60,728 nucleotides of DNA from Alphaproteobacteria bacterium (lineage in GTDB: Bacteria > Pseudomonadota > Alphaproteobacteria > CAAHEQ01 > UBA3637). A program made the translations under genes and the position numbers. Location: NCBI GenBank assembly GCA_045536135.1, contig JAZSNA010000025.1:1-60728 (forward strand), read 5' to 3'. This document shows positions 2,912 to 57,557 of the stretch, in pieces; the stretch's first letter is position 1, and every line of letters starts with the position of its first letter. A model generated the notes under the pieces. The model saw only the letters and a program-made list of their open reading frames with translations, was not told where the DNA came from and did not search any database.

Positions 2912-5007
2912 AAGCTTTCTTTTTAAAACTTTTTGATCGTTTGATATCTCTGATTTATATCGGAGTTGGATTATTTGTCTTTTTATCTTTGTTTTCATAT
3001 CATCGGAACGATGTTTCTTTTTATACAACTTCGGATTTTGTCATTCACAATTGGATGGGCGTATTCGGGGCATATTGTTCTGACTTTTTATTTCAATGGT
3101 TCGGATATGCTTCTTATTTAATTCCGATTTTTTGTTTTTTCTGGGGGCTGAACGGATTGTTAAAAGAACATATTCCCGTTCGCTTTTATCGTATTTTTGT
3201 TTTACTTATCACAATTTTTGTCAGTTCTGTTTTCTTGGGATATAAAACAGACGGCGGAACAATCGGTATTCTTTTTCATCATCATTTTCCATCCATTCAT
3301 CCCATTTATATCTTTATCCCTTGGATTATTTGTATGTCTTTATTCGTTTGGATTTCAACAATTCCAATCAAAAAAATGATGATCGGATTATGGCGATATA
3401 AAAATATTTTCTATTTCAAAAAGGTGGCTCCTCGGCCGATTATTAAACCGAAACCCGCTCCAAAAAAAATTTCTCGAAAAGCACCGGCTATACCGGTTCG
3501 CAAAAAAGTTATCGCATCAAGCCAATGGTCATTGCCATCAATTGATTTATTAAATAATCCAAAGGCTCAAAAAGAAAATTACCTGTCAAAAGAAATGCGG
3601 GAAGTCATCGGCAAACAAATCGAAGAAGAATTGCTTCAATTCGGTGTTCGAGGACGAATTGTCCGTTCCTCCCCCGGACCAGTCGTGACCTTATATGAAT
3701 TCGAACCGTCTGCGGGGGTTAAAATATCTCGTGTTATCGGATTGGCGGATAATATCGCCCTTAAAATGCGAGTCATATCCGTCCGGATGGAGGTCATTCC
3801 GGGAACAAATGTCATCGGTATCGAAATACCGAATGAAAACCGCTTAACCGTGTATATCAAAGAACTGGTTGACTTGGACAGTTTTATGGAAAGTCCGTTT
3901 ATTCTGCCGATTATTTTGGGAAAAAATATCGCCGGAACGCCTTTTGTGGCCGACTTGGCCAAAATGCCGCATTTACTTGTTGCCGGCACGACAGGTTCCG
4001 GTAAATCCGTGGCGATTAACACCTTTATTCTTTCGTTATTATATAAATGGACACCCGATCAATGTCGTATGATTATGGTTGATCCCAAAATGTTGGAGTT
4101 ATCTGTTTACAACGGTATCCCTCACTTGTTAACGCCTGTTGTCACAGATTCATCCAAAGCCGTCGTCGCTTTAAAATGGGCCGTACGGGAAATGGAAGAC
4201 CGTTATCGGGCAATGGCCGAACTGGGGGTTCGAAATATCGACGGATATAACCAAAAAGTGACCGAAGCCAAAGAAAAAGGTATAGATTTGTCTCGCAGTG
4301 TCCAAACCGGATTTGATCCGGAAACCGGAAAACCGATTATTGAAAAAATTCAAATTGATTTAACTCCGATGCCGTTTATCGTAATCGTCGTTGATGAAAT
4401 GGCTGATTTAATGTTGGTCGCCGGAAAAGAAGTTGAAGGCGCTATCCAACGTTTGGCTCAAATGGCTCGGGCCGCAGGCATTCATCTCATCATGGCGACT
4501 CAACGACCGTCCGTTGATGTTATTACCGGAACAATCAAAGCTAACTTCCCGACCCGTATTTCATTCCAAGTGACATCCAAAATCGATTCCAGAACAATCT
4601 TAAATGAACAAGGTGCCGAACAATTGCTTGGCAAAGGGGATATGTTATATATGCCGGCCGGTCGTAAGCCGATGCGTCTGCACGGTCCTTTCGTTGACGA
4701 TAACGAAGTTGAAAAAGTTGTCAATTTTTGGAAAAATCAAGGTTCCGCAAATTATGTCGAAGCCGTATTGGAAGAAAGCGAAGAAGATACGGGACCGATT
4801 TTCGATCAAACGCCCATGGGTCGTGAAGGCGGTAATTTATATGAAAAAGCCATTGAAATTGTTCGACGGGACAATAAACCTTCTATCTCATATATTCAAC
4901 GACAATTACGTATCGGATACAACAAAGCTGCAACCTTGATTGAAAAAATGGAAGCAGACGGGATTGTCAGCAAGCCGGCGATTAACGGGAAAAGAGAAGT
5001 TTTATAA
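2908..5007 (+). CDS. ftsK: DNA translocase FtsK
   Basis: N-terminal TM segments, Walker A GTTGSGKS, VVDEMADLM, ATQRPSVDVITG, and a winged-helix gamma domain (ISYIQRQLRIGYNKAA). Confidence 0.95.
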   Translation: MKAFFLKLFDRLISLIYIGVGLFVFLSLFSYHRNDVSFYTTSDFVIHNWMGVFGAYCSDFLFQWFGYASYLIPIFCFFWGLNGLLKEHIPVRFYRIFVLLITIFVSSVFLGYKTDGGTIGILFHHHFPSIHPIYIFIPWIICMSLFVWISTIPIKKMMIGLWRYKNIFYFKKVAPRPIIKPKPAPKKISRKAPAIPVRKKVIASSQWSLPSIDLLNNPKAQKENYLSKEMREVIGKQIEEELLQFGVRGRIVRSSPGPVVTLYEFEPSAGVKISRVIGLADNIALKMRVISVRMEVIPGTNVIGIEIPNENRLTVYIKELVDLDSFMESPFILPIILGKNIAGTPFVADLAKMPHLLVAGTTGSGKSVAINTFILSLLYKWTPDQCRMIMVDPKMLELSVYNGIPHLLTPVVTDSSKAVVALKWAVREMEDRYRAMAELGVRNIDGYNQKVTEAKEKGIDLSRSVQTGFDPETGKPIIEKIQIDLTPMPFIVIVVDEMADLMLVAGKEVEGAIQRLAQMARAAGIHLIMATQRPSVDVITGTIKANFPTRISFQVTSKIDSRTILNEQGAEQLLGKGDMLYMPAGRKPMRLHGPFVDDNEVEKVVNFWKNQGSANYVEAVLEESEEDTGPIFDQTPMGREGGNLYEKAIEIVRRDNKPSISYIQRQLRIGYNKAATLIEKMEADGIVSKPAINGKREVL

Positions 5008-39956: not shown

Positions 39957-40388
39957 TTATATTTTCGGACAATATGTGTCACTTTCTATTTTAGTTAATG
40001 TTTCATGAAAAATTATTTCAACAGTGTTGGTATTTTCATCTGTTTTAATACACATATATTTATCCGCACTTTTTTCCATTTCTCCTTTAAACGCCTCTAC
40101 ATCATCAGCATTATTTAATTCAACCGTAATTGAAAAAGTAATCTCATCATTTTTCAGATAAGTACATTTTGTTTGATCAAGTATCTCGTCTTTTTCTGCC
40201 CCTTCACTCATCCGACGATTTTGGGGAGCATATTTTGTTGCCAAAACCAAAACCTTGTTTTTTAAAATGGACATTCGATGTCTTTTAATCACAAATTGCA
40301 TTGTCGTTAATGTAATGGCAGAAATAACTGCAATAACCGCCAATACACCAATTAATTCCACCAACGAACGTCCTTTTTCTTTTTTCAT
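39957..40388 (-). CDS. short prepilin-like protein (no Cys-repeat array)
   Basis: MKKEKGRSLVELIGVLAVIAVISAI has the same G-RSxVE plus hydrophobic-helix N-terminus as the long Cys-rich paralogs. Confidence 0.6.
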   Translation of the reverse strand: MKKEKGRSLVELIGVLAVIAVISAITLTTMQFVIKRHRMSILKNKVLVLATKYAPQNRRMSEGAEKDEILDQTKCTYLKNDEITFSITVELNNADDVEAFKGEMEKSADKYMCIKTDENTNTVEIIFHETLTKIESDTYCPKI

Positions 40389-45055: not shown

Positions 45056-45166
45056 TTTTATTCCTTTTTTAAAAGTTAATTTTCAAACGGTCAGGCATCC
45101 CAATAATGGCCCGATTCGTTAACCGACTTGTTTTATACACCATTTTTCATAAAAAATCAAGTTTTT

Positions 45167-46213
45167 TTATAATTCTTCATCCAAATCAGACATCATGCTG
45201 ACTTCGGCCATTTTTTCTTTAATTTGAGCACACAAATTTTTCCGAACCAACCGAATCGCCCGACAAATCGCTGATGCATGTGCTTTGGCTCCCGAAGAAC
45301 CATGACTTTTAATTGATATTCCGTTTAATCCGATTAACATGGCACCATTATAACGATTGACATCAATTTTGGCTTTTAGCCGCAACATCGCCGGAATCAT
45401 AAAAATAAAACCGAGTTTAGCCAAGATGCTTTTGGAAAGCATTTGTTTAAACAGATTTTTACACATACGAGCCGTTCCCTCTATCGTTTTAAGAGCCACA
45501 TTACCCGTAAAACCGTCAGAAACAATCACATCACACCGACCGGTTCCGATATCCGTTCCCTCGATAAAACCTTCATATATCATTGTTTTATCATCCATCT
45601 CTTTTAACAAATGAGCGGCTTCACGAATTTCTTCCCGACCCTTAATATCTTCGGAACCAATATTTAACAGACCGACTCGAGGTTTTTCAACCCCCAAAAC
45701 CAAATTGGCATAAACAACCCCCATCATGGCAAATTCAACCAAATTTTGTGCATTTGCTTCGGTATTTGCCCCCAAATCAAGCATAACAAAATCTTTGTTT
45801 GCCGATGTCGGCATAACCGCCACAATCGCCGGACGATCAACGCCGGGAATCATTCCTAAACAAATCTTTGAAATAGCCATTAAAGCACCAGTATTCCCCG
45901 CCGACACAACCGCACCGGCATATCCGTTCCGAACAGATTTAATTGCACGAAAAAGGCTACTTTCCCGCCCGCTACGCAAAGCAACCGACGGTTTTTCATT
46001 TCCCTTAATGACTTGATCTGTATGATGAATTTTATAGGCTGTTTCAGGCAACCGGTACATATCCAATAACGGTTTGACCTTTTTTTCATCACCAAAAATT
46101 AAAAAGAAAACATCCCGATTCTTTTCCCATGCCAATCTAACGCCATGGATAACGGAGTCAGGCGCACTATCTCCACCCATCGCGTCAATGGCTATCACCA
46201 CTTGTTCTGACAT
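45167..46213 (-). CDS. plsX: phosphate acyltransferase PlsX
   Basis: IAIDAMGGD ... SAGNTGA motifs; downstream of rpmF. Confidence 0.95.
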   Translation of the reverse strand: MSEQVVIAIDAMGGDSAPDSVIHGVRLAWEKNRDVFFLIFGDEKKVKPLLDMYRLPETAYKIHHTDQVIKGNEKPSVALRSGRESSLFRAIKSVRNGYAGAVVSAGNTGALMAISKICLGMIPGVDRPAIVAVMPTSANKDFVMLDLGANTEANAQNLVEFAMMGVVYANLVLGVEKPRVGLLNIGSEDIKGREEIREAAHLLKEMDDKTMIYEGFIEGTDIGTGRCDVIVSDGFTGNVALKTIEGTARMCKNLFKQMLSKSILAKLGFIFMIPAMLRLKAKIDVNRYNGAMLIGLNGISIKSHGSSGAKAHASAICRAIRLVRKNLCAQIKEKMAEVSMMSDLDEEL

Positions 46214-46403: not shown

Positions 46404-46638
46404 TTTAATATCCTTTCTTTTATTTTTGTTTTCCCCTTATAGCGACTTTTTACAAAAAAATCAAGTCTTTTTTTACAAATCCTTTACCGTATTCACAACA
46501 GGCGAATTTGTAAAAATCAAATAAAGACTGTAAAATATCACAAACAGAGATAATAAAATAAATTGTCTTTTTGTCATAAAAACCTTTTCTTCTTTACTTT
46601 TTTATGTTATATATCATTTCATACTGAAAGTCAAATTT

Positions 46639-48103: not shown

Positions 48104-48173
48104 TAATGGATTAATTCTTTTTATCCCCAACCACAAGCGTTTTAAGTCATTGAAAAGTAATGTATTTTTACAT

Positions 48174-48300
48174 CAAAAAAACCTTGGTTTTTTGCAAGAA
48201 CTTTTTTTCATGATTTAAATATTTTTTTTCTTTTATTTTAAAAGCGTTGTTTTTTCATTTTTTGCCTTTTCGAATATCAAAAAAAACCAAGGTTTTTTTT
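48174..48300. promoter_or_regulatory. candidate invertible promoter element (locus 1): 85-bp core between perfect 20-bp hix-like inverted repeats
   Basis: 48174-48193 AAAAAAAACCTTGGTTTTTT versus 48281-48300 AAAAAACCAAGGTTTTTTTT. A homologous element at 55656-55783 has the opposite orientation relative to its gene. Confidence 0.6.
48192..48220 (+). promoter_or_regulatory. sigma70-like promoter TTGCAA-N17-TTAAAT inside the invertible element, pointing at 48349
   Basis: The -35 abuts the left repeat; the same TTGCAA -35 is used by the predicted tRNA-Ala promoter. The -10 lies in a palindromic ATTTAAAT, so directionality is not certain. Confidence 0.4.
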
Positions 48301-48348
48301 ATACTGTTTTTATTGAGGAAAAAAATAACAAAAAAAAGGAGAATAAAA

Positions 48349-49242
48349 ATGAAAAAACAAAGCGGTCGGAGTATGGTTGAAATGCTGGGAACACTGGCAA
48401 TTATCGGTGTTTTGTCAGTGACGGCATTGACGGGATATAAAATCGCCATGACCAAGAATCGGACAAACAATATTTTATATGATGTGAATTTAGCGATGAA
48501 TGAAATCGCCACTCGGGAATATGGGACCTTGGCGGATGTTGAAGCTGATGTATCCACTTTGGGTGTTAAAACGGAATTTGACATCAGCTATGCCCGATTA
48601 GGGAATACAGAATCAGAAGGTTTTTATATCGTTGTGGATGGTATTACACCGGAAGTTTGTGAAACCTTGCGTTCCAATAAAACCGCTTTTATGGCGAAGA
48701 TCCAACCATATAATGGTGAAGATCCCGCCAATTCATGTGAAGATGCCAATGCAGTCTATATCACATTCCCATACCCACCAATCGAGGGGGGAGAGGTTGC
48801 AGAACCTGCACCTTGTGATTCTGATGAATATTTTAATGGTAGCTGTCTTCCTTGTCCGCCAAATGCAACTTGTGATGGAACAGCCAATGTGATTTGTTCT
48901 GATACCAGTAAGTATTTAAATGCTGCAAGGGGGAGCTGTGAATCTTGCCCATCGGGTGCGACTTGTGACGGAACAAATGTGATTTGTTCGGATACCAGTA
49001 AGTATTTAAATCCTGCATGGGGGAGCTGTCGTTCTTGCCCATCGGATGCGACTTGTAATGGATACACTGGAATTTGTTCGGATACCAGTAAGTATTTCAA
49101 TGCTTTATGGGAGGAGAGTTGTCAACCTTGTCCGGATTATGCCATTTGCGATGGAACAAAAGATGCATCCTGTGATAAAGGATGGTGGAGTGAAGTTGAC
49201 GGGTGTTGCTTTGATGATGATGTTGGTTGTCTATATCTATAA
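48349..49242 (+). CDS. prepilin-like N-domain protein with furin/VSP-like Cys-repeat C-terminal array
   Basis: AAGGAG RBS; MKKQSGRSMVEMLGTLAIIGVLSV (G, E at +5, hydrophobic helix). About 5 CxxCP-x-(D/G/N)ATC(D/N)G units, then the tail CDKGWWSEVDGCCFDDD. Confidence 0.8.
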   Translation: MKKQSGRSMVEMLGTLAIIGVLSVTALTGYKIAMTKNRTNNILYDVNLAMNEIATREYGTLADVEADVSTLGVKTEFDISYARLGNTESEGFYIVVDGITPEVCETLRSNKTAFMAKIQPYNGEDPANSCEDANAVYITFPYPPIEGGEVAEPAPCDSDEYFNGSCLPCPPNATCDGTANVICSDTSKYLNAARGSCESCPSGATCDGTNVICSDTSKYLNPAWGSCRSCPSDATCNGYTGICSDTSKYFNALWEESCQPCPDYAICDGTKDASCDKGWWSEVDGCCFDDDVGCLYL

Positions 49243-54414: not shown

Positions 54415-55608
54415 TTATAGACAACTCCCAACATCATCATCAAAGCAACACTCAGAAAGCTCATCCCACCATCCTTCATCACAAATCACAATGTCTGTTC
54501 CATCGCAAGTGGCATCAGCCGGACAAGGTTGACAGTTCCTCCATGAAACATTTAAATATTTACTGGTATCCGAACAAATCACAGTGATTCCATTGCAAGT
54601 GGCATCCGATGGGCAAGGATAGCATTCGTCGTCAAAATACGAAAAATATTCTGTTTTATCACAGCAAGAAGAATTCCCTTTACCCCCTTGATTTAGGATA
54701 TATCCATCATCACAAATCACATTCGCCGTTCCATCACAAGTCGCATCCGATGGACAAGAATCACAACTCGAACCACTAAAAAACTGATCGGTGCTTCCAC
54801 AATCGGTTATTTTCGTTCCATCACAAGTCGCGCCCGATGGACAAGAACGACAGCTCCCACCATAAAAATACTTACTGGTATCAGAACAATTCACATTCGC
54901 CGTTCCATCACAAGTCGCATCCGATGGACAAGGATAACAACTCGAACCACTAGAATACTGATCGGTGCTTCCACAATCGGTTATTTTCGTTCCATCACAA
55001 GTCGCATCCGATGGACAAGAAAAACATGAGGCAGATCCAAAATATTTATTAGAACCACAATTCACATTCGCTCCATCACAAGTCGCATCCGATGGACAAG
55101 GATAACATCTAGCATATTTAAAATATTCATCAGAATCACAAGGTACTGGTTTTTCGATCTTTCCCCCCTCGATTGGTGGGTATGGGAATGTGATATAGAC
55201 TGCATTGGCATCTTCACATGAATTGGCGGGATTATCACCATTATATGGTTGGATCTCCGCCATAAAAGCGGTTTTATTGGAACGCAAGGTTTCACAAACT
55301 TCCGGTGTAATACCATCCACAGCAATATAAAATCCGTTTTTTTCTTCCCCTCCCAGTCGAGCATAACCGATATCAAATTCCGATTTAACCCCCAAATCGG
55401 ATACAGGAGCTTCTTCATCAACCGGTAAAGACATATATTCCCGAGTGGCGATTTCATTCATCGCTAAATTCACATCGTATAAAATATTATTTGTCCGATT
55501 CTTGGTCATGGCGATTTTATATCCCGTTAATGCCGTCACCGACAAAACACCGATAATCGCCAGTGTTCCCAGCATTTCAACCATACTGCGTCCAAATTCT
55601 TTTTTCAT
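54415..55608 (-). CDS. prepilin-like N-domain protein with furin/VSP-like Cys-repeat C-terminal array (longest paralog)
   Basis: MKKEFGRSMVEMLGTLAIIGVLSV. The N-domain DNA is about 95 percent identical (by eye) to 48349..; about 7 CxxCP-x-DATCDG units; tail CDEGWWDELSECCFDDD. Confidence 0.8.
   Translation of the reverse strand: MKKEFGRSMVEMLGTLAIIGVLSVTALTGYKIAMTKNRTNNILYDVNLAMNEIATREYMSLPVDEEAPVSDLGVKSEFDIGYARLGGEEKNGFYIAVDGITPEVCETLRSNKTAFMAEIQPYNGDNPANSCEDANAVYITFPYPPIEGGKIEKPVPCDSDEYFKYARCYPCPSDATCDGANVNCGSNKYFGSASCFSCPSDATCDGTKITDCGSTDQYSSGSSCYPCPSDATCDGTANVNCSDTSKYFYGGSCRSCPSGATCDGTKITDCGSTDQFFSGSSCDSCPSDATCDGTANVICDDGYILNQGGKGNSSCCDKTEYFSYFDDECYPCPSDATCNGITVICSDTSKYLNVSWRNCQPCPADATCDGTDIVICDEGWWDELSECCFDDDVGSCL
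54717..55064. repeat. 174-nt (58-codon) tandem duplication inside the Cys-repeat array
   Basis: 54717-54845 versus 54891-55019 differ at about 6 positions by my count. Confidence 0.75.
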
Positions 55609-55655
55609 TTTTATACTCCCTTGTTATTATTAATTTTTACCAATAAAAACAGTAT

Positions 55656-55783
55656 AAAAAAAACCTTGGTTTTTTGCAAGCATTTTTTTTACAATTTAAA
55701 TATTTTTTTTCTTTTTTTTTCAAAAAACTTATTTTTTCATTTTTCGCCTTTTTGAATATCAAAAAAAACCAAGGTTTTTTTTT
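55656..55783. promoter_or_regulatory. candidate invertible promoter element (locus 2), flipped relative to its gene compared with locus 1
   Basis: 55656-55675 AAAAAAAACCTTGGTTTTTT and 55761-55783 AAAAAAAACCAAGGTTTTTTTTT. The 85-bp core is colinear with locus 1 on the + strand although the gene is on the - strand. TTGCAA-N16-TTAAAT (55674-55701) points away from the gene. Confidence 0.6.
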
Positions 55784-55814
55784 GCACTTTTTGAATAGTG
55801 TTTTTTCAATATTC

Positions 55815-57557
55815 TTATCTTCGTTTCCAAAACCGACGAAATGTTTTTTGAGATTTATTCGGATCCAAATCAAGACCGATTTCTTCTATTTTACCGGCAA
55901 CGATTTTCCGCACAATCAATTCCACATGATCCAAGGCAAACCGATCGCCGACTTCCAAATTGGAAAAGTTTTTTTCCAATAATTTTCCCAAGGTTTCTTT
56001 TTCCATCTTTTTTTCAACTTTAATACCGTATAAAAAAGATAAATCAATTAATTTTGTTTCGGGTCTTAGAACAAAATCACCCAATTCGGACGGGCGTATC
56101 AACACCGTTCCGGCACTGAACAAGTGATCCAAAACCTCAACTGTTTTTTCAGAATTTGAAAAAACATAAACCTGATCTTTTTCTTGAAATTCCTTGATAT
56201 TAGCCCCATTAAAAGAAACACCGTTCCGTTTAACCAATATCGGCCATGCCCACTTGGGGATTTTTTCGCCCTTTAAAACTGGACTGTCTGCTTTTAAAAT
56301 ATAGGTAATTAAAGAACTATCCTCTAACCCCGGCAAATCAATTTCCACCTTATCCGCCGGTTTTTCATAAATAGGCAAGATAACCTTACAAATTTTCGAA
56401 AACGGAATAATATAAAAACCCTGTACAGCCAAAGATAACAAGACCATCAAGAAAATTAAATTAAAAATAAGTTCACTTTTATCCAATTGCATCGCCAGCG
56501 GAGCCAACGCCAACAAAATAGATGTTGCACCACGCAATCCGACAAAGGAAATAAAAGCCTTTTCCTTAAAAGTATATTTAAACGGAGCCAAACATAAAAA
56601 TATAGCGAGCGGGCGGGCAATAAAGATTAAAGATGTTCCCAAAACCAATGCCGGTGTGACCAATTGAGAAAAATGTCTGAAATTCGCGAATAGTCCCAAG
56701 GATAAAAAGATAATAATTTGACACATCCAAGCCAATGTTTTTTGAAATCTTAAAATTTGATAATAACCCTTTATTTTGGAATTACCCAAAAGCAATCCAG
56801 CAACATATAAGGCCAAGAAACCCGAACCGCCGAAAATATTCGTCATTGAAAACCCGATTAAAACCATAGCAATTAAAAAAACGGGATACAAGGCGATATC
56901 CAAATTAACACGGTTAATGACTCGATGAACAACCACCGACATTCCCAAACCGGCTAATAATCCGATGCCCATTTGTTGAATAAAAGTCAACCCGATATAT
57001 CCGCCCAAGGACATTGTCGGATTTATTAAAAAGCCCAAACAGGAAAAAGTCAAAAAAATCGCCATCGGATCATTTGTTCCGGATTCAACTTCCAATGTGG
57101 ATTTGATTTTATCACGAACGCTGACGCCACCCATCCGAAGTAAAAAGAAAACCGCCGCCGAATCGGTCGAAGATATAATCGATGCCAATAAAAAGGACTG
57201 AACAAAACTGAAATCCAAAAAATAATAAGCGATTGGTGCAAAAAATAAAGTTGTTAAAAATACACCGACCGTTGACAGCAACAACGATGGCACAACATTT
57301 TGCCGATAACTTTTTAACGAAGTTTGAAAACCGTTATCAAATAAAATCAATGCCAACGCCACAGACCCAATAAAAAAAGCAATTTTAGGTTGATGAAACC
57401 CCGTCACCAAAGACAATCCGCCCTCGCCAATCAACAATCCGATACATAAGAAAACCAAAATAAGCGGGATATTCGCCTTTGATGAAACCAATGAAGTTAA
57501 GACACTAACCACCAACAATATCGATATTAAAAAAATCGGGAAATTAATAAAATCCAT
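55815..57557 (-). CDS. K+/H+ antiporter (CPA1, NhaP2/CvrA-like) with C-terminal TrkA-C domain
   Basis: Multi-TM Na_H exchanger core (SSTDSAAVF, ESGTNDP) plus a soluble C-terminal domain. Confidence 0.8.
   Translation of the reverse strand: MDFINFPIFLISILLVVSVLTSLVSSKANIPLILVFLCIGLLIGEGGLSLVTGFHQPKIAFFIGSVALALILFDNGFQTSLKSYRQNVVPSLLLSTVGVFLTTLFFAPIAYYFLDFSFVQSFLLASIISSTDSAAVFFLLRMGGVSVRDKIKSTLEVESGTNDPMAIFLTFSCLGFLINPTMSLGGYIGLTFIQQMGIGLLAGLGMSVVVHRVINRVNLDIALYPVFLIAMVLIGFSMTNIFGGSGFLALYVAGLLLGNSKIKGYYQILRFQKTLAWMCQIIIFLSLGLFANFRHFSQLVTPALVLGTSLIFIARPLAIFLCLAPFKYTFKEKAFISFVGLRGATSILLALAPLAMQLDKSELIFNLIFLMVLLSLAVQGFYIIPFSKICKVILPIYEKPADKVEIDLPGLEDSSLITYILKADSPVLKGEKIPKWAWPILVKRNGVSFNGANIKEFQEKDQVYVFSNSEKTVEVLDHLFSAGTVLIRPSELGDFVLRPETKLIDLSFLYGIKVEKKMEKETLGKLLEKNFSNLEVGDRFALDHVELIVRKIVAGKIEEIGLDLDPNKSQKTFRRFWKRR

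Follow-up and report, generated by a model that had tools for sequence, protein, structure and literature searches.

Why should one and the same short intergenic element lie in opposite orientations relative to two closely related genes of a single contig? This question is raised by contig JAZSNA010000025.1 from the assembly of an uncultured gut alphaproteobacterium (GCA_045536135.1), from which the whole stretch of 60,728 nucleotides (hereafter the window) was analysed. At two loci, beside the genes for two pilin-like paralogues (gene 1 at locus 1 and gene 2 at locus 2; Table 1), a pair of inverted repeats (IRs) with arms of at least 18 nt bounds a short intergenic segment. The most likely answer, to which we assign a probability of roughly 70%, is that both loci are small promoter inversion switches (invertons), each with a split promoter and operated by a serine invertase of the Mpi family.

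Within the window, the repeats are confined to these two loci. The 18-mer AAAAAACCWWGGTTTTTT (A6-CCWWGG-T6) was matched four times with zero mismatches and there was no fifth match in the whole 60.7 kb, against a chance expectation of 0.02 obtained from dinucleotide-preserving shuffles. The matches start at 48176 (centre TT), 48281 (AA), 55658 (TT) and 55763 (AA), and the site centres are 105 bp apart at locus 1 and locus 2 alike. All four 18-nt arms are identical, while the interior and the leader have diverged by 13-18% between the two loci; the invariance of the arms in spite of an interior divergence of about 15% argues for selection on the arms.

Comparison of the two loci revealed two sets of homologies that run in opposite directions. 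The stretches 48172-48300 and 55654-55782 form a direct repeat with 83% identity. Between the central dinucleotides (103 nt), locus 1 and locus 2 are 87.5% identical in the direct and 48% in the inverted orientation, and for the 85-nt interior without its A/T runs the values are 85% and 41% (shuffles: mean 57%, maximum 64%). In contrast, identity of the leaders reaches 82% when both are read toward their genes, i.e. solely as inverted repeats, and the same holds for the sequence directly beyond the elements on the gene side (86-93%) and for the DNA of gene 1 and gene 2 (86-88%). The distal flanks of the two loci show no relation (about 50% identity). An interior that matches directly, joined to a leader and gene that match only as inverted repeats, indicates that the duplicated unit comprises element, leader and gene, and that the element is flipped in one copy. 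Both orientations are thus present in the window, at two paralogous loci rather than at one locus.

The homopolymer runs around the site cores provided markers for the point of exchange. The inner runs travel with the interior (T6 by the GCAAG end and A8 by the GATATTC end) and the outer runs stay with the flanks (T8 at the leader; A7 or T9 at the distal flank), which places the exchange inside the 6-bp CCWWGG core. The initial annotation of this DNA had already described the two loci as copies of one IR-flanked element in opposite orientations relative to their genes, and this description and the junction sequences that went with it were both borne out on reading the two loci. Its placement of the breakpoint at the central dinucleotide agrees with the run-length markers as far as the core, which is the resolution of the breakpoint, the dinucleotide being finer than the data allow. 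The identical spacing that it reported for both loci stands as well; its figure of 85 nt depends on where the arms are taken to end, and 87 nt separate the 18-mers.

Direct evidence that sites of this kind invert was obtained from relatives. Among the open reading frames (ORFs) of the relatives' loci, a phmmer search with a Hin query returned one serine recombinase (L068, 1461-2072), which adjoins the IR element of a paralogue and whose product contains Resolvase and HTH_7 domains. Against the NCBIfam model NF009949 ('master DNA invertase Mpi family serine-type recombinase') it scored E 2.5e-78 and 262 bits, the curated cut-off being 272. Its homologues at 74-94% identity are found in at least 120 database clusters, and the named ones all come from metagenome-assembled genomes (MAGs) of Alphaproteobacteria. 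Contexts of the homologue P0156 display a conserved order: YadA-anchor adhesin gene (-), 300-bp gap, invertase gene (+), zapA, three genes, radC and a peptidase M24 gene; the pair of radC and M24 genes also precedes locus 1 in the window. The 300-bp gap holds ACAAAAACCAAGG and CCTTGGTTTAAA, 111 bp apart, which have a CC-WW-GG core with A/T flanks as in the window; the invertase-adjacent pair in the relatives reads AAAAACCAAGG...CCTTGGTTT, with the core AAACC-WW-GGTT.

This element occurs in both orientations. Between L081 and L084 the flanks are identical at 276/277 and 305/307 positions, and the 105-nt interiors are identical at 103/105 positions as reverse complement only. Ten further assemblies carry the P0160 allele with a slightly different invertase; nine of them are in the L084 state and L110 is flipped, with 101/105 interior positions identical as reverse complement. 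Altogether 2/16 assemblies (L081 and L110) are flipped, and in 16/16 contexts the polymorphic same-core element lies beside the gene for an Mpi-family serine invertase. Sites with the same core as those of the window thus invert naturally in relatives, in agreement with the site-specific inversion that had first been proposed as the mechanism. When opposed WWWCC(AA/TT)GGWWW pairs no more than 400 nt apart were searched for in the window and in 1.2 Mb of DNA fetched for the relatives, solely the invertase-adjacent elements and the two window loci were found. Another invertase, P0199, has a home element with the core AACTAATRTT, and ten assemblies are all in one state. In L091 (about 2260-2400), from a different species among the relatives, the invertase-adjacent core is AACTAAT(A/G)TT instead of AACCWWGGTT; this element adjoins a near-identical TTGACTTTTAA module and faces an operon with epimerase and glycosyltransferase genes.

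The enzyme, which the initial annotation had left unnamed, therefore has a strong candidate in the Mpi-family serine invertase of the relatives, and we infer that an enzyme of this family acts in the genome from which the window comes. On the other hand, the 6-bp resolution of the breakpoint suits the 6-8-bp overlap of tyrosine recombinases no less than the 2-bp crossover of serine enzymes, tyrosine systems typically have very short invertons, and one paralogue in L023 has a XerD-like gene as its neighbour. A real switch worked by a tyrosine recombinase (FimB/RecV/Tsr-like) that uses CCWWGG as a 6-bp spacer is nevertheless quite unlikely in our opinion, considering that the polymorphic same-core element stands beside a serine invertase gene in every context, that the site core matches the gix crossover core, and that tyrosine recombinases are rare near the paralogues (3/80 relatives' loci, namely L020, L023 and L053, as found with a XerD query of limited sensitivity).

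The relatives also bear on the possibility of a fossil inversion, in which the element flipped once after the duplication, the sites were not used again, and the arrangement is now fixed under ordinary regulation. The window's organism is represented by a single assembly, and P0004, which is found in another genome, shares the locus-2 junction, which could be an inherited fixed state. P0003 and P0004, both from NCBI MAGs, are the closest proteins to the window's paralogues (66% and 43% identity, respectively). The annotated N-terminal extension of P0004, MLAKNQGFFYTVFIDEKNNKKRRIK (MLAKNQGFFYTVFI...), corresponds to the translated switch junction plus leader (ATGCTTGCAAAAAACCAAGGTTTTTTTTATACTG...); its start codon lies in the invertible element and is best read as a mis-called start, with the P0004 locus in the locus-2 state. 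We consider a fossil very unlikely, however: arms identical over 18 nt in four copies are hard to reconcile with the divergence of interior and leader, inversion at sites with this core is seen in relatives, and conservation is strong for the invertase across the clade and extends, across lineages, to an outward-facing -35 module that is described below.

A reading without any recombination was hardly credible. The terminal inverted repeats, small size and AT-richness would suit MITE-like insertions (miniature inverted-repeat transposable elements) in opposite orientations, and palindromic sites 105 bp apart, i.e. about 10 helical turns, would suit operators for a looping regulator. However, every copy in the window and the relatives' DNA lies either next to the invertase gene or upstream of a gene for a surface protein, and the full IR pair had 0 exact-pattern matches in the collections of genome contigs and metagenome contigs (the junction CCAAGGTTTTTTTTATACTGTT likewise had 0 exact matches in the metagenome contigs). 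With respect to the conserved leader the two copies are placed identically, no target-site duplication is visible, and operators would not account for an interior that is flipped and broken at the centres of the sites. A dispersed MITE, which had been named at the outset as a finding that would refute the switch, is thus not what the element is: it has no copies at unrelated sites in the DNA covered.

Homologues of the two genes are very numerous and make up a paralogous family in MAGs of uncultured Alphaproteobacteria from the gut of rabbits, ruminants and humans. From 80 loci of relatives we collected the 450 nt upstream of 99 paralogue starts. At least 45 of these upstream regions contain an IR-flanked element, which has an interior of 90-135 nt and ends 40-110 nt before the ATG. 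The IR cores vary by lineage (Table 1), yet the two arms of each element stay inverted repeats of each other; such joint change of both arms is as expected of sites that co-evolve with their enzyme. IRs of one type are also shared by dispersed loci, as in the two window loci with their identical arms 7.4 kb apart; P0004 provides a third such locus in another genome, and the relatives carry many sites per MAG. No inverton and no polymorphism were seen at the paralogue P0019.

What would an inversion switch? In a consensus scan, locus 2 gave TTGCAA-17-TATACT on the gene strand (9/12), and the crossover core sits in the 17-nt spacer of this promoter; for locus 1, the scan found no promoter on either strand. 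Such a match is not significant alone, and the split-promoter call therefore rests on positional conservation across lineages. In-silico flipping of the relatives' elements yielded a junction promoter with a 17-nt spacer in six lineages that have different IR cores (Table 1), and each of these promoters is preceded by a homologous A-tract block, AAAAAAAAT-N-CAAAAAGTGAAAAAAAAGTG. By eye, TTGACT-N17-TACCAT toward the adhesin gene was read in the naturally flipped L081, and TTGACT-N17-TACAAT toward a polysaccharide-type operon in the P0199 home element if it is flipped. The module points away from the gene in 36/99 paralogue upstream regions. ON-like inverton-type junctions were found at window locus 2 and for both genes flanking the L027 element, where the module of A-tract and TTGCAA faces the (-) gene only. 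An automated comparison of -35 and -10 hexamers was noisy, often with a wrong -10, and its usable part is the upstream A-content (0.29 vs 0.54).

That a -35/UP module facing outward at the distal end is conserved can be understood only for an element that flips, and it is for this reason that locus 2 is read as ON and locus 1 as OFF, which we regard as probable. Most of the relatives' copies would then be OFF. The initial annotation had listed locus 1 as ON first while allowing for the reverse, and it is the reverse that now appears more plausible. Its choice was based on a promoter inside the element, TTGCAA-N16-TTAAAT at 55674-55701. The two hexamers are indeed present, and the Na+/H+ exchanger gene (55815-57557, -) is convergent with their direction, but as a promoter they do not hold up well, since the second position of the -10 is not the conserved A and relatives do not share this -10.

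The same switch with a wholly internal promoter, i.e. TTGCAA-N16/17-TTAAAT/TTTAAAT toward the GATATTC end, would make locus 1 ON with a 5' untranslated region of about 130 nt, and locus 2 OFF with antisense transcription into the exchanger gene. We judge this version unlikely. Its hexamers occur at both loci; TTGCAA is palindromic, so the hexamer proposed here as the -35 of gene 2 is also that of the internal promoter on the + strand and may be used in either direction; and the locus-1 orientation is the majority among the relatives' paralogues and could be the functional default. However, the internal -10 candidates do not have the A2/T6 combination and locus 1 was negative in the scan. In the lineages with other IR types the internal -10 is not conserved, in contrast to the -10 of the leader, which is retained 17 nt from the flipped -35. 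An internal promoter would moreover put the conserved A-tract module downstream of its -35 instead of upstream, and at least seven paralogues all ON in one MAG would be less natural for a variable surface family than a family that is mostly OFF. An antisense effect on the exchanger gene would require this internal promoter to fire, and it has no footing if the promoter does not exist.

Under the split-promoter reading, a recombinase encoded outside the window, most likely an Mpi-family small serine invertase as judged from the relatives, would carry out strand exchange at the two inverted sites, inside their CC-WW-GG cores, and flip the 99-nt interior. The -10 (TATACT) and the leader would stay fixed beside the gene, while the UP-like module and the -35 (TTGCAA) would ride on one end of the segment. 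With the TTGCAA end proximal to the gene, TTGCAA-N17-TATACT would be complete and the gene ON, as predicted for gene 2; with the other end proximal, TCAAAA would occupy the -35 position and the gene would be OFF, as predicted for gene 1. The enzyme would act in trans, and independent flipping would be expected at each locus; the mutually exclusive expression considered initially finds no support. The two window switches would belong to a set found throughout the clade and controlling a large family of pilin-like Cys-rich proteins, and homologous switches of the relatives would gate an adhesin gene and apparently also a polysaccharide-type operon. Switching may continue in the window's organism.

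Several observations weigh against this reading. No recombinase gene was found in the window, either by Pfam on 38 ORFs or by phmmer with Hin and XerD queries (the latter of limited sensitivity) on ORFs of at least 100 aa, as had been noted from the start, and the score of the candidate invertase falls just under the cut-off of its family model. Exact-pattern scans of the contig collections found no second assembly of the window's organism, and the relatives that show inversion are distant (RadC 43% identical to that of the window). A segment of about 105 bp is very short for a serine-invertase synapse and has no helical phasing of A/T tracts to ease bending. As for the promoter, the generic scan gives about one chance match per 300 nt in shuffles of AT-rich DNA, and the elements behind the promoter conservation are homologous and hence non-independent. 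In the rabbit-MAG lineage, TTGCA(A/T) occurs at N17 on both inner arms, so that TTGCAW may belong to the recombinase site instead of being a -35, and an inversion would there change the UP-like module alone. Finally, read-through from radC may leave the OFF state of gene 1 leaky.

Table 1. Proposed switch elements and promoter parts of the window and its two pilin-like genes, with IRs and predicted junction promoters of relatives
Feature	Position	Strand	Sequence or remark
Locus 1 gene-distal recombination site	48175-48193		A7-CCTTGG-T6; core 48182-48187
Locus 1 invertible interior, 99 nt	48188-48286		TTGCAA (48192-48197) and A-tract module at distal end, pointing away from gene 1
Locus 1 gene-proximal recombination site	48279-48300		A8-CCAAGG-T8; core 48287-48292
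Locus 1 fixed -10, candidate	48300-48305	+	TATACT; 17 nt upstream (48277-48282) TCAAAA, no -35 in present state
Gene 1, pilin-like paralogue, 297 aa	48349-49242	+	predicted OFF
Gene 2, pilin-like protein, 397 aa	54415-55608	-	N-terminus GRSMVEMLGTLAIIGVLS, then Cys-rich CPSDATCDGT repeats; predicted ON
Locus 2 proposed fixed -10	55651-55656	-	TATACT; in conserved leader of gene 2, outside invertible part
Locus 2 gene-proximal recombination site	55656-55675		A8-CCTTGG-T6; core 55664-55669, central TT 55666-55667
Locus 2 invertible interior, 99 nt	55670-55768		flipped compared with locus 1, both in gene orientation
Locus 2 proposed -35	55674-55679	-	TTGCAA; inside invertible part, faces gene 2
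Locus 2 A-tract-rich UP-like module	55680-55720	-	AAAAAAAATATTTAAATTGTAAAAAAAATGC; upstream of -35, homologous to relatives' modules
Locus 2 gene-distal recombination site	55761-55783		A8-CCAAGG-T9; core 55769-55774
IR, window			A8CCWWGGT8
IR, rabbit MAGs			TTAAACGTAC / GTACGTTTAA
IR, L005, L031, L065			AAAAGGGAC / GTCCCTTTT
IR, L050			A8GGTACG / CGTACCT4
IR, L030			A5CGATCGT5
IR, L073			A7GGATCCT7
Predicted junction promoter after in-silico flip, window locus 1			TTGCAA-N17-TATACT
Predicted junction promoter after in-silico flip, L005			TTGCAA-N17-TACACT
Predicted junction promoter after in-silico flip, L018			TTGCAA-N17-TACAAT
Predicted junction promoter after in-silico flip, L030			TTGACA-N17-TATAGT
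Predicted junction promoter after in-silico flip, L031 and L065			TTGCAT-N17-TATACT
Predicted junction promoter after in-silico flip, L050			TTGCAA-N17-TACACT

Among known systems, Mpi of Bacteroides fragilis is similar in several respects. The small serine recombinase of the relatives matches the model of this family, one trans-acting enzyme apparently serves many dispersed promoter switches in front of genes for surface structures, and the habitat is the gut. The consensus of the B. fragilis sites is ARACGTWCGT, which we take to be matched by the IR AAACGTACGT of the rabbit-MAG relatives; the window arms, A8-CCWWGG-T8, do not match it. Other differences are that the host is an alphaproteobacterium and not a member of the Bacteroidales, that the genes concerned encode pilin-like Cys-rich proteins and a YadA-type adhesin, and that the relatives' enzyme, at 262 bits, is slightly below the equivalog cut-off of 272. 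Moreover, Mpi segments are about 170-230 bp long, compared with about 105 bp here, and an Mpi segment carries the whole promoter, whereas the promoter here is apparently split across the recombination site.

The enteric and phage inversion systems are similar at the level of site and enzyme. As in Hin, Gin, Cin and Pin, the sites flank the segment as inverted repeats and the enzyme of the clade is a small serine recombinase with a C-terminal helix-turn-helix. The gix sites of phage Mu, located at the annotated G-segment boundaries (AF083977), read TTATCCAAAACC-TC-GGTTTACAGGAA and TTCCTGTAAACC-GA-GGTTTTGGATAA; their core AAACC-NN-GGTTT is identical in the window sites, which are likewise inverted near-palindromes with an asymmetric central dinucleotide. 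On the other hand, the A/T runs of the window are 6-9 nt long as opposed to 3-4 nt in gix, i.e. 2-5 nt longer, and variable between half-sites, and the 12-bp half-sites of hix and gix, with their fixed distance to the outer recognition bases, are not found in the window, so that the difference from hix/gix spacing pointed out initially is upheld in spite of the common core. The clade's invertase is only 29% identical to Gin (E 2e-14). The Hin segment measures about 1 kb and the G segment of Mu 3 kb, compared with 105 bp in the window. Hin and Gin have an adjacent invertase gene and one target locus per genome; the window has no adjacent invertase gene, the relatives have one invertase-adjacent 'home' element per genome, and target loci are many. 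Systems of the Hin/Gin type also have a Fis-bound recombinational enhancer in cis. Hin flips a promoter, with hix sites of 26 bp, a segment of 1 kb and an enhancer of about 70 bp, and engineered Hin inversion was tested only down to 200 bp (PMC2427008).

A multigene surface-protein family with a small invertible promoter for each member is also encountered in Mycoplasma penetrans. Each mpl gene (P35 family) has its own IR-flanked invertible promoter of about 130 bp, which gives combinatorial phase variation; these switches are flipped by tyrosine recombinases, each element contains its complete promoter, and neither the organism nor the protein family is related to that of the window. The window loci likewise resemble the IR-flanked intergenic segments with flipping promoters that PhaseFinder and PhaVa detect. 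Inverton surveys have reported thousands of cases across phyla, with the highest numbers per genome in Bacteroidetes, Fusobacteria, Gammaproteobacteria and Verrucomicrobia; they are based on isolate and reference genomes, and the text of the preprint makes no mention of Alphaproteobacteria or pilins (bioRxiv 10.1101/2023.03.11.532203). In contrast, the lineage considered here is known from MAGs only. The window loci would thus bring a new lineage to a familiar class of on/off switches, and they depart from the systems above in five ways: the clade of the host, the family of the targets, the sequence of the IRs, the shortness of the segment and the apparently split promoter.

The products of gene 1 and gene 2 have in common a prepilin-like N-terminus, K-x-x-G|RSMVEMLGTLAIIGVLS, in which G|RSMVE is followed by a hydrophobic helix, and a C-terminal part made of Cys-rich repeats of about 30 residues (CPSDATCDGT) that differ in number. 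Pfam N_methyl matched the gene 1 product with E 0.005, below the cut-off of the model, and gave no match for that of gene 2; no NCBIfam model matched either protein, and the assignment as pilins is weak. Tandem repeats of 81-93 nt at 48840-49160 and 54470-55140 encode the CPSDATCDGT units in unequal copy number, and the difference in length (297 vs 397 aa) suggests that repeat expansion and contraction may be a second source of variation. The window contains two further genes of related type: the C-terminal part of a third Cys-rich paralogue (52-948, +), truncated at the window start, and a small pilin-like gene (39957-40388, -; 143 aa, MKKEKGRSLVELIGVLAVIAVIS...) with weak NCBIfam pilin matches, which lies directly downstream of a major facilitator superfamily (MFS) transporter gene and has no IR element.

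Between the two loci are groEL, groES, a DUF1189 gene, a tRNA-Ala gene and a flavin reductase gene. The proximal sites 48287-48292 and 55664-55669 are mutually inverted and 7.4 kb apart, and a 7.4-kb inversion, which would flip groESL and tRNA-Ala and swap the genes between the switches, is possible in principle. The site pairs 48182/55664 and 48287/55769 are direct repeats that would permit deletion. In an Rfam scan of the window, two tRNAs and no other known RNA family were found. Locus 1 is preceded by radC, 70 nt upstream on the same strand, and the peptidase M24 gene; no terminator was predicted between radC and locus 1, or at either locus. RNA that crosses a whole element would form a long, A-U-rich, arm-to-arm hairpin (-24.5 and -28.8 kcal/mol, z about -3.3, for folds computed on 48168-48310 (+) and 55645-55790 (-)), which may insulate the gene against read-through from radC. 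Clear 10-11-bp phasing was looked for in the A/T tracts of the element and none was seen, and bent DNA that would ease looping was dropped as an explanation for this reason.

The homopolymer runs (A7/A8, T6/T8/T9) make up most of the proposed 17-nt spacer and differ in length between sites; slipped-strand changes in them could modulate the promoter, or destroy it, without any inversion. At L027 (9361-9765), one IR-flanked element lies between divergent paralogues, of which the (-) gene is in an ON-like state, and a single flip would be predicted to toggle expression between the two genes. A similar layout is seen in L035 around 4330-4600, where the arms are 244 nt apart, outside the size range analysed.

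A broader reading is advanced more tentatively, at slightly less than even odds. A clade-wide master-invertase regulon may exist in which one Mpi-like enzyme serves dozens of ultra-short (about 105-150 bp) UP/-35 modules that dock on fixed -10s, with recombinase occupancy, RNA polymerase binding and slippage acting on the same 17 nt and with the 7.4-kb inversion permitted. Its targets would be members of the pilin-like Cys-rich family and adhesin or polysaccharide loci. If true, global surface phase variation of the Mpi type would extend beyond Bacteroidales to uncultured gut Alphaproteobacteria, and the variable antigens could be named: the pilin-like Cys-rich family, a YadA-type adhesin and possibly polysaccharide genes. 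The design, with a mobile -35/UP module, a fixed -10, the crossover in the spacer and about 105 bp in all, bears on the minimum substrate length of serine invertases, and such a compact split promoter may serve synthetic switches.

Switch sites likely break metagenome assemblies as well, and they mislead gene callers, as in P0004 with its start codon inside the element. The invertase contigs L094, L095 and L098-L100 end 200-400 nt upstream of the invertase gene, and many contigs with invertase homologues are only 1-3 kb long; such ends are as expected if mixed orientations break assemblies.

Two minor sequence features were also recorded. About 150-250 nt upstream of the switches, a conserved element ...CCGGAAGGTAGTA...AACTTCCGGTCGCC(T/A)CTCATCA(A/C)GGCGATTTTTTTT is present in L004, L007, L019, L028, L045, L060 and L074, and also in L008, L012, L038 and L087; it resembles the 3'-terminal part, terminator included, of a small RNA or leader. 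In the window, look-alikes of the recombination sites (A6-TCAAG-T7) at 45150 and 46454 were rejected as such, being direct repeats upstream of rpmI and rpmF. These sequences, A6-7TCAAGT(C)T5-7 at 45143-45171 and 46447-46475, precede rpmI-rplT and rpmF-plsX on the - strand and, as read by eye, probably represent an A-tract with a CTTGAT -35 followed after 17-18 nt by TATAAA or TATAAG, i.e. housekeeping promoters.

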